The notes: generated by a model not told the origin, from the letters alone. 64,000 nucleotides of DNA from an uncultured Alphaproteobacteria bacterium (GCA_963817705.1 CAWFPF010000007.1:7275-71274); one strand, 5' to 3'; counted from the stretch's first letter, positions 61,032 through 64,000 are shown. A program made the numbers and translations.

Positions 61032-62387
61032 ATGGCGGAACACGCAAAGCCATCGCGGATAGACGTAATTGAGCGCAAGCGCTTGCTCGACGCGTTCTTC
61101 AAGGTCGACGAGGCCACGGTCTCGCACGAGCAATTCGACGGCGAAATGAGCCCGCCAAGGCCGGTTCTGATCTTTGAGCGCGGCGATGCGGTGGCAGCCC
61201 TGCTCTACGATCCGGACCGCCGCAAGGTCATCACCGTCAATCAGTTCCGCTTTCCGGCCTATGGCAAGGACGATGGCGGGGGATGGCTCGTGGAGGCCGT
61301 CGCAGGCATGATCCATGACGGCCAAGACGGCACGCCGGCGGAAACCCCGATGCAATGCCTGATACGCGAGGTGAAGGAGGAGACGGGATACGAAATCGCT
61401 AAGGCAACGCTCGTGTCCAAGTTCTTTTCATCGCCGGGCGGAAGCACGGAGCTGATTCACCTTTATTACGCCGAAGTTCGAAGACCCGACAAGAAGAGCG
61501 AGGGCGGCGGTGTGAGGGCGGAAGGCGAGGATATTGAGGTTGTCGAGTTCGGCATCGAGGATTTCTTCGCGAAGCTCGCCGCTGGAGATTTCAAGGATCC
61601 CAAGCTCATCATCGCGGGCCAGTGGTTGATGGCATCGCGCAGTCTCGACTTCTTCGCCCGTTTGGAAGGTGTTCGCTCCCGGAAGAAAGATGATCGGGCA
61701 GAATTTGATCCAACCGTATCGAGAACGATTGCATACAAAGTTATGAAAGGCGAAGGACGCAACCTCGGCATCAAGACTGGCGATATCAAAGCGGTGCGCG
61801 GTGCCGATGCCTGGGTGAACTCCGAGAATACAGACATGATGATGGACCGCTTTTTCGGGAAGTCCGTTTCGGCCTCCATCCGGTATCTTGGCGCCGAAAA
61901 GGATCAGGACGGCATCGCGATTAAGAAGGACACCATCGGCCGGGCGCTGACTTCCGAGCTTGGGGAGCGCAATTACGTCGAGCCTGGCTATGTTATTGAG
62001 ACAACCTCCGGCGAACTGGCCAAACATCCCTACTACGTCAAGGGCATTTTTCACGTTGCAAGCGTTCGCGGCCAGATTGGAGCGGGGCTAAGAACGTCTC
62101 TGTCGACGGTGCAGGAGGCAATGGACAACATTCTTGCAAAGATCGAAGCGGCGAGACGCTACCGGTCCGTACTCGTGCCTTTGCTGGCAACGGGACAGGG
62201 GGATTCTCCGATGGAGCAGGTCGCACCTATTCTCGTAGACCGTGCGCTCGCCTTCTTCAGCGAGCGCTCCAACACCTACCTCAAAGAAATCTATTTCCTT
62301 GCCTATACAAGCAGCGCTAAAGAGCTGCTGGAGAGCTTGCTGCGGGGTAAGACGGTGGGAGCCGATCCAGCGCTCTCGGTGACATAA
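61032..62387 (+). CDS. NUDIX hydrolase (ADP-ribose pyrophosphatase-like) fused to a Macro domain
   Basis: AVAALLYD...QFRFP...EAVAGM...REVKEETGY...SPGG (NUDIX); GDIKAVRGADAWVNSEN...IFHVAS...VLVPLLATGQG...IYFLAY (Macro fold). Confidence 0.85.
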   Translation: MAEHAKPSRIDVIERKRLLDAFFKVDEATVSHEQFDGEMSPPRPVLIFERGDAVAALLYDPDRRKVITVNQFRFPAYGKDDGGGWLVEAVAGMIHDGQDGTPAETPMQCLIREVKEETGYEIAKATLVSKFFSSPGGSTELIHLYYAEVRRPDKKSEGGGVRAEGEDIEVVEFGIEDFFAKLAAGDFKDPKLIIAGQWLMASRSLDFFARLEGVRSRKKDDRAEFDPTVSRTIAYKVMKGEGRNLGIKTGDIKAVRGADAWVNSENTDMMMDRFFGKSVSASIRYLGAEKDQDGIAIKKDTIGRALTSELGERNYVEPGYVIETTSGELAKHPYYVKGIFHVASVRGQIGAGLRTSLSTVQEAMDNILAKIEAARRYRSVLVPLLATGQGDSPMEQVAPILVDRALAFFSERSNTYLKEIYFLAYTSSAKELLESLLRGKTVGADPALSVT

Positions 62388-62425
62388 GGTTTGCGGATTG
62401 CTGCCGTCGCTGGAGGGGGTGAGAG

Positions 62426-64000
62426 GTGGGGTTCGGCGTTTGGAGTAGGTACGTGGGCCCACAAGGCCCTTTCCGGCTTGTGAATGCGCGATACCTCGGC
62501 ATCGCAAGCCGGGTCTTGGTTGTCAGGCCACTTTTGCTGGCGATCCCCTCCGCGCTGATCCTCGTCCTTCCCCAGATGCAGGAGGTCTTTGCCGGCATAC
62601 TTGAGGCGCGGGACCTATGGCACGGCGCATGCGGGCTCGTGGCGCTCTGCCTCTTGAGCACCTTTCTCTACGGCTGGCAGCATGCCTTGGTGACCCGGCT
62701 GATCGATGGCGTCTATCCCGATCACGCAAATCTCGATTTTGACAAAACGCTGCTCAGTTTCAGGCGGGATCAATGTCTTCTCGTCGCGGGAATTCCGTGG
62801 CTGGGATACTGCACCGGGCTCGCTCTGACCTTCCAGCGCGTCTGGGGCCAGCATCTTCACTATCGAAGCATAACAGACGCGTTTCCTGGTTCGCTGCCCG
62901 CTTCGCAAGCTCTTAAAAGTTCCTTCGACGCTGTCCTGCCGCTTTTCGGCTCGGCCTGGATGTTATCTGCGATAACACTCGGCCTCCTTCTGCTTGTGCT
63001 GATAACCTACAATCCATCCGCAAGATTCCGGAACTATTTCACAGTCGCCTATTTTGTGGGCGGTTCGCTCATCATTGCCAATCCGATCCTTCTTCCCTCG
63101 GTCACTATTCCCCTGGCGCGGGGGCTTGGTCCGTTTGCTTGCGCCATCCTCGTCATGATAGCGGGCCCGGTCGCGCTGCGGATCGGCTATTCCGCCGTGA
63201 GGCTTATTCTGTTGCTCCTCCTATTCGCTAGCAATGTGTTTTTCTCTGTCTTTCTCTTCATGCACTCGGGCTGGAAGACATCGTTTGTGACGAGATTGCC
63301 GGTCTTCGCCGTCGGGATCGGTGTTGTCTATTTGGTCTATTCCAATGTCATCGCCGTACCGCCGGAGGCACGCGAGAGCAGCGATCCCCATTCAAGCTTT
63401 GCACTTTCGACCGGGCAAGCGGCCCATCGCGGCCTCGATCCCATCCTGAAGGATAGCTTCGCGCACTGGCTCAAGGCGCGCCGGAGTGGAAACGCTCCGT
63501 TCCCCGTCTTCATCGTCACGGCTCAGGGCGGCGGAATTTACGCGGCTTCGGCGGCATCGTCTCTTCTGGCAACGCTTCAAGACCGTTGCCCAAGCTTTGC
63601 GCGCCACATTTTCGCGATCAGCGCCGTTTCCGGTGGAAGTGTCGGGGCCAGCGTTTTCAATGCAGCCCTTGCCGAAGAGAACGCCAGTAAAGGGGAAACG
63701 GGCTGTGCACCGAAGCGAGAGGAACTGCTGTCGCCGCGCATGAACCGAATCATGCTCGACGATCACCTTTCGCCCGTCATCGCGTATCTGCTTCCCGATT
63801 TTCTCCACGATCTCGTCGATTTCGTAGAAGTTTATGTCGGAAAGGAGATTCCCGGCGAACGCCTTTGGATCGACAGGGCAAAGGTGCTGGAGAACAGCTT
63901 CGTTCGCAGTTTTGAAGATGCCCATGATGCCGGTGCAAGCAACCGGCGCGCCTCTTCAAGCGAAGGCGGCTTCCTCACCCGAAACATTGGTGCAGCTTGG
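62426..64000 (+). CDS. Multi-TM patatin-like phospholipase, runs off the right edge (not in the ORF track)
   Basis: Open frame from GTG 62426 (GGAGG RBS) to the edge; long hydrophobic N-terminus, then FIVTAQGGGIYAA and FAISAVSGGSVGA. Confidence 0.8.
   Translation, partial: MGFGVWSRYVGPQGPFRLVNARYLGIASRVLVVRPLLLAIPSALILVLPQMQEVFAGILEARDLWHGACGLVALCLLSTFLYGWQHALVTRLIDGVYPDHANLDFDKTLLSFRRDQCLLVAGIPWLGYCTGLALTFQRVWGQHLHYRSITDAFPGSLPASQALKSSFDAVLPLFGSAWMLSAITLGLLLLVLITYNPSARFRNYFTVAYFVGGSLIIANPILLPSVTIPLARGLGPFACAILVMIAGPVALRIGYSAVRLILLLLLFASNVFFSVFLFMHSGWKTSFVTRLPVFAVGIGVVYLVYSNVIAVPPEARESSDPHSSFALSTGQAAHRGLDPILKDSFAHWLKARRSGNAPFPVFIVTAQGGGIYAASAASSLLATLQDRCPSFARHIFAISAVSGGSVGASVFNAALAEENASKGETGCAPKREELLSPRMNRIMLDDHLSPVIAYLLPDFLHDLVDFVEVYVGKEIPGERLWIDRAKVLENSFVRSFEDAHDAGASNRRASSSEGGFLTRNIGAAW

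Follow-up and report, generated by a model that had tools for sequence, protein, structure and literature searches.

A conserved pair of NUDIX-Macro and polytopic membrane patatin-like lipase genes in Alphaproteobacteria, a candidate ADP-ribose-linked module

Patatin-type lipases and Macro domains both occur in bacterial anti-phage systems. In CBASS, an anti-phage signaling system that is based on cyclic oligonucleotides, the lipases CapV and CapE are soluble proteins that themselves bind a cyclic nucleotide, and their genes adjoin that of a CD-NTase. Type II Thoeris combines a TIR protein, ThsB, with a Macro-transmembrane effector, ThsA, and uses His-ADPR as its signal (10.64898/2025.12.03.692087). 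Here, we present a gene pair that brings relatives of these modules together in a new arrangement. It lies at the 3′ end of a 64,000-nucleotide stretch of DNA (the window; GCA_963817705.1 CAWFPF010000007.1:7275-71274) from an uncultured alphaproteobacterium and consists of gene A, which encodes a NUDIX-Macro fusion protein, and gene B, which encodes a polytopic membrane patatin-like lipase (Table 1). A preliminary description, made from the window alone, had proposed the two genes as a candidate conflict system and had offered, as one model, that an ADP-ribose-type signal gates a membrane-damaging lipase and the NUDIX domain resets it. As judged by sequence comparison, the pairing of a NUDIX-Macro protein with a membrane patatin is real, and it is an undescribed module.

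The two genes are kept together across genera. The host genome (4.8 Mb), which the names of its closest homologues assign to Rhodomicrobium (Hyphomicrobiales), was compared with those of 24 other species of that genus, and in about 16 of the 24, gene A lies directly upstream of gene B on the same strand. A pattern search based on the lipase alignment, run against 185,579 species genomes, returned 79 loci. All 47 of the most similar loci have NUDIX and Macro directly 5′ on the same strand, and the remaining 32 are weaker matches to the catalytic domain only, with no gene A. The gap between the genes in the 47 loci has a median of 17 nucleotides (nt) and a maximum of 116 nt, with some values of 0 or −4. 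The pair occurs in many soil and water Alphaproteobacteria, and its hosts include Rhodomicrobium, Hyphomicrobium, Filomicrobium, other Hyphomicrobiaceae, a metagenome-assembled genome (MAG) of Devosia, Xanthobacteraceae, Methylovirgula, and Neomegalonema. A reciprocal check from distant homologues of gene A found a gene of 775 to 789 amino acids (aa) located 3 to 53 nt 3′. Among 80 metagenome contigs gathered via the Macro signature, the lipase comes next after every NUDIX-Macro gene whose contig extends about 3 kb further downstream. The divergences of A and B are rank correlated (rho, 0.82), in a set of related genomes that are not independent of one another. Distant catalytic-domain paralogues (in Bradyrhizobium, Burkholderiales, Verrucomicrobia, and others) occur without gene A, and no conserved partner gene was found for the paralogous clades of transmembrane patatins (Bradyrhizobium, Burkholderiales, and others). 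No third conserved gene was found among the 47 loci, only antisense shadow open reading frames (ORFs) and a genus-specific synteny with DJ-1/PfpI. On this comparative evidence, with order, strand, and short spacing all kept across genera, A and B do co-occur as a unit, as had been suggested, and are a conserved, putative two-gene operon and functional unit.

Gene A is predicted to encode a soluble protein with neither a signal peptide nor a transmembrane segment (AlphaFold model pLDDT [predicted local distance difference test], 80.3). Its first half matches Pfam NUDIX (1.8e-10) and TIGR00052 (YffH/AdpP; 114.9 bits, 3.2e-33, against a cut-off of 79.55), and its sequence matches in the PDB are Escherichia coli NudK and ADP-ribose pyrophosphatases at 1e-25 to 1e-20 (NudK/ADPRase, 2.7e-25). 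Foldseek superposes this half on the structures of NudF and NudK with template-modeling (TM) scores of 0.8 to 0.9, and the NUDIX box with its glutamates is invariant in an alignment of 24 homologues, as are residues E104, E113, E117, G119, and Y120. The NUDIX box, a family hidden Markov model score above the cut-off, and the fold all place it in the NudF/NudK family, apparently as an active ADP-sugar pyrophosphatase, which may prefer ADP-ribose or a different NDP-sugar.

The second half of the gene A protein belongs to Pfam Macro (PF01661; 23.1 to 25.5 bits, against a cut-off of 22). Its subtype was compared with the PDB by means of a profile built from 16 family members. The best matches are the PARP14 macrodomains (5.3e-16; macro2/3), followed by macroH2A1.1 (about 3e-8) and PARP15, which are mostly ADP-ribose-binding readers. 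The hydrolytic macrodomains YmdB, MacroD, and Af1521 match far more weakly (6e-5 to 1e-2). The MacroD-type loop N-x6-G-G-G-V-D is absent, the loop in gene A being VNSENTDMMMDRFFGRSVSATIR; the G-I/V-Y/F-G motif of MacroD is likewise absent, and the second motif in gene A is T-G-x-G-G. The family signature of the subtype is WVNSENTDMMMDRFFGRSVSATIR. Because reader macrodomains are closest and the MacroD catalytic loop is missing, the domain is read as a predicted ADP-ribose binder or sensor, which may also hydrolyze. The Macro domain of ThsA is a poor match; the PADLOC model matches gene A weakly (E = 0.013), and the Pfam ThsA_Macro model gives a weak match in 1 of the 16 family members. A reader-type Macro domain joined to a NUDIX domain with an intact box makes it plausible that the lipase is linked to ADP-ribose.

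Gene B runs 918 nt beyond the window, to the equivalent of position 64918 (L003:3701-6193), and the catalytic D632-G-G of the full-length protein lies outside the window. The suspicion that the system extends past the window edge held for gene B itself and not for any further conserved gene. No match to Pfam patatin (PF01734) was found at E ≤ 0.01 for the full 830-aa protein, PADLOC and NCBIfam gave nothing significant for gene B and, for gene A, only NUDIX-box matches or the weak one to the ThsA Macro model, and a sequence profile of the lipase family run against the PDB returned only noise. Many of 405 homologues carry precomputed PF01734 matches, mostly faint. In an alignment of 25 homologues, G368-G-G, A-V-S402-G-G, and D632-G-G are all invariant; across 120 homologues, the catalytic Ser is present in 114 and the Asp in 115. 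S402 sits at a strand-helix turn, with Ala or Gly as the first Gly of the elbow G-x-S-x-G. In the oxyanion motif, G368-G-G is invariant and Tyr replaces the usual Arg/Lys in 116 of the 120. When the AlphaFold model (pLDDT, 78.7; pTM [predicted TM score], 0.81) was searched with Foldseek, the 24 best PDB matches were all patatin, CapV, VipD, PlpD, CapE, iPLA2-beta, cPLA2, or ExoU. Based on the PF01734 matches of its homologues, the invariant motifs, the model, and these structural matches, gene B is a predicted lipase of the patatin/cPLA2 fold with a complete Ser-Asp dyad, in a divergent clade. Species genomes contain 396 stretches related to polytopic membrane patatins.

The layout given in the preliminary description was correct. 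Gene B starts 38 nt after the stop codon of gene A on the same strand, it has many membrane segments (seven or eight), and GGGIYAA and SAVSGGS are present. The identities assigned to the two proteins also stand, that of A through above-cut-off matches to Pfam NUDIX, Macro, and TIGR00052, and that of B despite the lack of a Pfam match of its own. No terminator-like hairpin was found in the 38-nt spacer. The membrane domain of gene B has no family match in Pfam, NCBIfam, or PADLOC, and its conservation is highest in YPDHADxxFDR, a loop that connects helix 2 to helix 3 and is predicted to be cytoplasmic.

Cysteines and loop charges bear on the side of the membrane that the lipase domain occupies. 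Of 111 homologues with no more than 30 to 45% identity, 110 have C388, C427, C782, and C801. The catalytic region contains an even number of cysteines (4 or 6), and the one protein without C782 also lacks C801; cysteine counts are mostly even in the paralogous transmembrane patatin clades as well. Even, jointly lost cysteines are the pattern seen in disulfide-bonded extracytoplasmic domains. The loop charges are consistent with a seven-helix topology with the N terminus inside and the C terminus outside. On two grounds, these cysteines and the positive-inside rule, the lipase domain probably lies in the periplasm. Since gene A lacks a signal peptide, control of a periplasmic lipase would have to pass via the membrane domain.

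The pair has the character of an accessory element. An even sample of the order, 151 genomes from 95 genera, contains this type of Macro domain in 3 genomes and 2 genera. Compared with the closest relatives in which the flanking ABC operon is also present, gene A is about 60% and gene B about 38% identical, versus 80 to 93% for most neighbors. Split or interrupted copies are found in G009, G013, and G016 and in the second copy of G014, for which MAG assembly error is also possible. G014 carries two copies of the pair (L030 = C10 and L031 = C27), and the genes in L031 align only piecewise, possibly through decay or assembly error. At the syntenic site of G002, a congeneric genome (L130 = G002:C2:124000-140000; 7780-9054), a NUDIX-only gene is followed by the DJ-1/PfpI gene and then the AMP-binding gene. 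This NUDIX-only gene encodes 209 aa, is 69% identical, and ends at residue ~204 of gene A, and the Macro domain and the entire lipase are jointly absent as one block of ~3.2 kb. With the two missing together while NUDIX persists, this single syntenic case suggests that Macro and lipase make up the functional core and that the NUDIX domain is useful alone too.

Relatives of both modules also recur in proteins tied to NAD+ cleavage. An exhaustive profile search with the Macro subtype of gene A retrieved 436 representative proteins at E ≤ 1e-30. The subtype serves as C-terminal domain in both nSTAND1 NTPases (P0292) and DUF4062-nSTAND1 (Avs-like) proteins (P0295), and it is also found in the reverse domain order, Macro-NUDIX. 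In STAND proteins, the C-terminal position is normally that of the sensor. DUF4062 is reported to be a TIR-like NADase that generates ADP-ribose and serves as the effector of Avs-type and other anti-phage systems, in two preprints of 2026 that make no mention of Macro, NUDIX, or patatin partners (10.64898/2026.05.01.722283, 10.64898/2026.09.04.749371). The complete transmembrane patatin module is fused C-terminally to TIR_2-nSTAND1 in P0065 (1368 aa) and P0081 (1416 aa; L127:1603-5853). P0065 matches residues 30 to 814 of gene B at 35% identity and has Ala at the nucleophile position; P0081 retains the nucleophile Ser. In the metagenome contig L134, a DUF4062-nSTAND1 gene (3457-5730, + strand) directly follows the pair on the same strand, and L126 and L128 were the only contigs with TIR genes close to the pair, for TIR-TPR and TIR-FGE-sulfatase proteins. 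These STAND/TIR associations are few, and the genomes are rich in TIR/STAND genes, so chance contributes. The Macro and lipase modules independently point to one NAD+/ADP-ribose network. The gene 5′ of P0081 was considered as a NUDIX-Macro gene and rejected; it encodes an nSTAND1 plus FGE-sulfatase protein.

We propose, with a probability of roughly 45%, that the pair is an ADP-ribose-controlled membrane-lipase switch, a chromosomal module of the conflict or abortive-infection type without a signal generator of its own. The Macro domain would detect free ADP-ribose or a derivative, arising when NAD+ is cleaved by NADases of the TIR or DUF4062 type (the genome has 14 TIR-domain ORFs) or by enzymes of an invader. 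The A protein would then act on the cytoplasmic face of the membrane domain of B, with the YPDHADxxFDR loop as the candidate contact, and switch on the lipase domain, which is probably periplasmic, has two conserved predicted disulfides, and would cut phospholipids of the envelope. The NUDIX half would turn ADP-ribose into AMP and ribose-5-phosphate and in this way set the threshold and reset the switch. The outcome would be envelope damage of the abortive-infection type. A wider version of the proposal is speculative and unlikely. It would make the pair a generator-less ADP-ribose alarm, in which Macro senses ADP-ribose from any of the cell's many NADases of the TIR/DUF4062 type or from enzymes of an invader, the periplasmic lipase is fired from the inside out via the membrane domain of B, and NUDIX sets the threshold; the pair would be an executioner shared by NAD+-cleaving immune sensors, and the Macro subtype would be a general sensor of Avs-like STAND proteins.

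Several observations weigh against the switch. Although TIR, SIR2, or ART genes had been suspected downstream, none is present downstream at the window's locus, where the genes 3′ of the pair encode DJ-1/PfpI, an AMP-binding enzyme, a GH3 hydrolase, PPDK, MeaB, and a cell-wall hydrolase. On the 5′ side of the pair is a Liv-type ABC transporter operon. A gene for an NADase or ADP-ribosyltransferase is lacking at this locus and at most others. Elsewhere, other neighbors are present, most of them with housekeeping roles (flagellar genes, ribosomal proteins, Obg, CTP synthase, and IspDF). The defense-island context that had been put forward as a check was not found. The two nearest genes on each side of 33 diverse, non-Rhodomicrobium loci (121 neighbor proteins) show no enrichment, with 112 mostly housekeeping Pfam families and scattered generic PADLOC matches, and no full-length copies were found in 72,556 plasmids or 50,697 phage records, in which searches returned only distant catalytic-domain paralogues of 25 to 29% identity. 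By the usual operational criteria, the pair is not a defense-island gene pair. Its composition is not foreign, either. The lower GC content noted in the preliminary description is real and mild (0.581, versus 0.641 for the ABC ATPase gene and 0.603 for the genome; 16th percentile of 3.8-kb windows), and the GC content at third codon positions is not low.

Further points concern the proteins themselves. A nucleotide could not gate a periplasmic lipase domain directly in the manner of CapV, and the relay across the membrane from A to such a lipase is conjectural. Crude hydropathy gives eight hydrophobic segments in Rhodomicrobium versus seven in other genera; the extra segment is positively charged at either flank and may be interfacial or re-entrant. 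In a whole-genome search, gene A had the sole Macro domain and the sole NudF-type NUDIX domain of the host genome, and for this reason it could simply be a housekeeping scavenger of ADP-ribose.

The main rival to the switch, tenable if rather unlikely, is a physiological module in which A cleans up ADP-ribose or O-acyl-ADP-ribose and B is a lipase that remodels envelope lipids, both expressed under the same stress, for instance NAD+ turnover, starvation, or the growth of membranes in bacteria that are budding or prosthecate. Housekeeping neighborhoods everywhere, a purely chromosomal distribution, native composition, and the standing of A as the only NudF-type NUDIX and Macro protein in the genome would all be expected of such a module. 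The persistence of the NUDIX-only orthologue at the G002 locus, the likeness of a probably periplasmic lipase to membrane-homeostasis lipases, and the many prosthecate Hyphomicrobiaceae among the hosts fit as well. The distribution, however, is patchy (3 of 151 genomes, 2 of 95 genera), divergence is very fast compared with that of the flanks, apparent decay is repeated, and both modules have been recruited into TIR/DUF4062-nSTAND1 proteins. The tie of Macro to the lipase rather than to NUDIX is also hard to explain by shared regulation alone.

More doubtful is a toxin-antidote or reversible-modification arrangement, in which the lipase is toxic or switched by ADP-ribosylation while A removes ADP-ribose through a hydrolytic Macro domain and NUDIX destroys it. 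The tight two-gene operon with the putative antidote first and the joint loss of Macro and lipase would suit it, as would the weaker yet significant matches to the hydrolytic YmdB, MacroD, and Af1521. Antidotes based on Macro domains exist, such as DarG of DarTG (PMC11543638). The operon, however, encodes no ADP-ribosyltransferase, the Macro domain is closest to readers and has no GGG-V-D catalytic motif of the MacroD type, and a periplasmic lipase domain would be beyond the reach of a cytoplasmic eraser. Split or interrupted B genes lie beside intact A genes, but an intact B lacking A, the arrangement that would show addiction, has no clear example.

A metabolic coupling, in which the patatin-fold esterase and A serve a single pathway for a small molecule (an example would be that fatty O-acyl-ADP-ribose or another nucleotide-linked lipid is hydrolyzed and the nucleotide is then broken down), is very improbable. 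A patatin dyad hydrolyzes acyl esters in general, Macro domains like this one, such as that of macroH2A1.1, bind O-acyl-ADP-ribose, and the order of ester and then pyrophosphate cleavage would be chemically sensible, yet an anchor of seven or eight helices and a probable periplasmic site are unfit for a cytoplasmic nucleotide substrate, and the STAND/TIR fusions are left unexplained. Chance adjacency of two unrelated genes is refuted by the conservation of order, strand, and adjacency in 47 of 47 clade members and in metagenomes, in many genomic contexts.

Table 1. Features of the gene pair and its surroundings, in window coordinates
Feature	Coordinates	Strand	Remarks
Gene A, NUDIX-Macro fusion	61032..62387	+	ATG 61032, TAA 62385-62387; 451 aa, soluble
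NUDIX domain, NudF/NudK (YffH/AdpP) type	61056..61649	+	Residues ~9-206
NUDIX box REVKEETGY	61365-61391	+	Within gene A
Macro domain, reader-like subtype	61719..62351	+	Residues ~230-440; Pfam Macro
Macro signature WVNSENTDMMMDRFFGKSVSASIR	61812-61883	+	Within gene A
Macro motif LLATGQGDS	62181-62207	+	Within gene A
Spacer between A and B	62388..62425	+	Exactly 38 nt; Shine-Dalgarno-like GGAGGGGG at 62412-62419
Gene B, polytopic membrane patatin-like lipase (predicted)	62426..64000	+	GTG start six bases past GGAGGGGG; first 525 of 830 aa
N-terminal membrane domain	62492..63361	+	Residues ~23-312; 7-8 hydrophobic helices (hydropathy, loop charges, AlphaFold helices)
Conserved PQMQEVF	62570-62590	+	Membrane domain of gene B
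Conserved loop YPDHANLDFDK, predicted cytoplasmic	62714-62746	+	Membrane domain of gene B
Patatin-fold catalytic domain, start	63527..63640	+	Contains GGGIYAA, C388, SAVSGGS
Oxyanion motif GGGIYAA	63527-63547	+	Gene B
Conserved C388	63587-63589	+	Gene B
Nucleophile elbow SAVSGGS	63620-63640	+	S402 codon 63629-63631
DJ-1/PfpI gene	L003:6224-6829 = window 64949-65554 equivalent		Follows lipase

The DJ-1/PfpI gene lies beside the NUDIX(-Macro) locus in most Rhodomicrobium genomes (80 to 88% identity) and is not conserved outside the genus. It was rejected as a member of the module, as its synteny is confined to the genus and it stays beside the NUDIX-only gene in G002.

Related genes occur in other arrangements. 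In G018, a NUDIX-only gene with 61% identity to the NUDIX part of gene A is present three times (L132, L133, and G018:C4), and in the two copies examined, L132 and L133, a relative of a DUF559-like ORF of the window (55969-56472) lies ~3 kb 3′ of it, which suggests a repeated element. A Hyphomicrobium MAG has a second, small NUDIX gene (138 aa) directly 3′ of the lipase (L042:10492-10908), and a Neomegalonema MAG has a second NudF-like gene downstream on the opposite strand (L099:5012-5704, −). A distant Macro domain (34% identity) is found in a different, nucleotide-type operon (L207:5880-10538), with the order HIT protein, unknown-plus-Macro, unknown 438-aa protein, CwfJ_C_1/HIT-like protein, and unknown 257-aa protein. 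The host genome contains 14 TIR_2-domain ORFs and seven ordinary (canonical) patatin genes.

If the switch exists as proposed, it would represent a new wiring of NAD+-based immunity, a lipase effector without its own signal generator that is controlled by a separate sensor-plus-eraser protein and probably acts on the far, periplasmic side of the membrane. A function could then also be given to the polytopic membrane patatins, a large family without annotation, and to a Macro subtype that occupies the sensor position of DUF4062/nSTAND1 proteins. Neither the gene A nor the gene B protein is covered by PADLOC-DB 2.0, and a full-text literature search found no paper on the pairing of NUDIX-Macro with a membrane patatin. 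Even if the module is physiological, the literature searched does not describe an envelope lipase so strictly coupled to the handling of ADP-ribose.

Among known systems, CapV and CapE of CBASS (PDB 8zr9, 9kej, and 9ioq) resemble gene B in their patatin fold and Ser-Asp dyad (TM score to target, 0.5 to 0.56; probability, 1.0) and resemble the proposed switch in that a nucleotide signal controls a membrane-damaging lipase. Unlike them, the pair has no cyclase, its lipase has seven or eight helices and is probably periplasmic, and its nucleotide-binding domain is on a separate protein; gene B also has an oxyanion Tyr where patatins have Arg/Lys. No cyclase was found at the locus or among the nearest two genes per side of the 33 other loci, and there was no PADLOC match to CBASS. 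Type II Thoeris is similar to the proposed switch in having a Macro domain as the sensor of an ADP-ribose derivative, linked to damage of the membrane. It differs in its TIR gene, which the operon here lacks, in the placement of Macro, which is here on a soluble NUDIX protein, and in its effector, which is a pore and not a lipase. Identity with CBASS or type II Thoeris was therefore rejected, given no CD-NTase, no TIR in the operon, and a sensor that is not on the effector.

Avs-like STAND proteins with NADase effectors of the DUF4062/NIR or TIR type (Swarozyc and PsAvs2) share relatives of both modules with the pair (P0295, P0292, P0065, and P0081), whereas the window's locus has no STAND NTPase or NADase. 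PlpD, ExoU, and VipD have the same fold as gene B by Foldseek, and PlpD also works outside the cytoplasm; these proteins are secreted or injected and have neither a polytopic membrane domain nor a nucleotide-handling partner. NudF, NudK, and YffH of E. coli and Klebsiella (PDB 1g0s, 9b1z, and 3o52) share the fold of the NUDIX half, an intact NUDIX box, and ~30 to 34% identity but, unlike gene A, are free-standing housekeeping proteins with no Macro fusion and no linked lipase gene. The TRPM2 cation channel differs from the pair in being eukaryotic, a single polypeptide, and an ion channel rather than a lipase and in having no Macro domain; in it, a NUDT9-homology domain of the NUDIX type binds or hydrolyzes ADP-ribose and controls a membrane protein.

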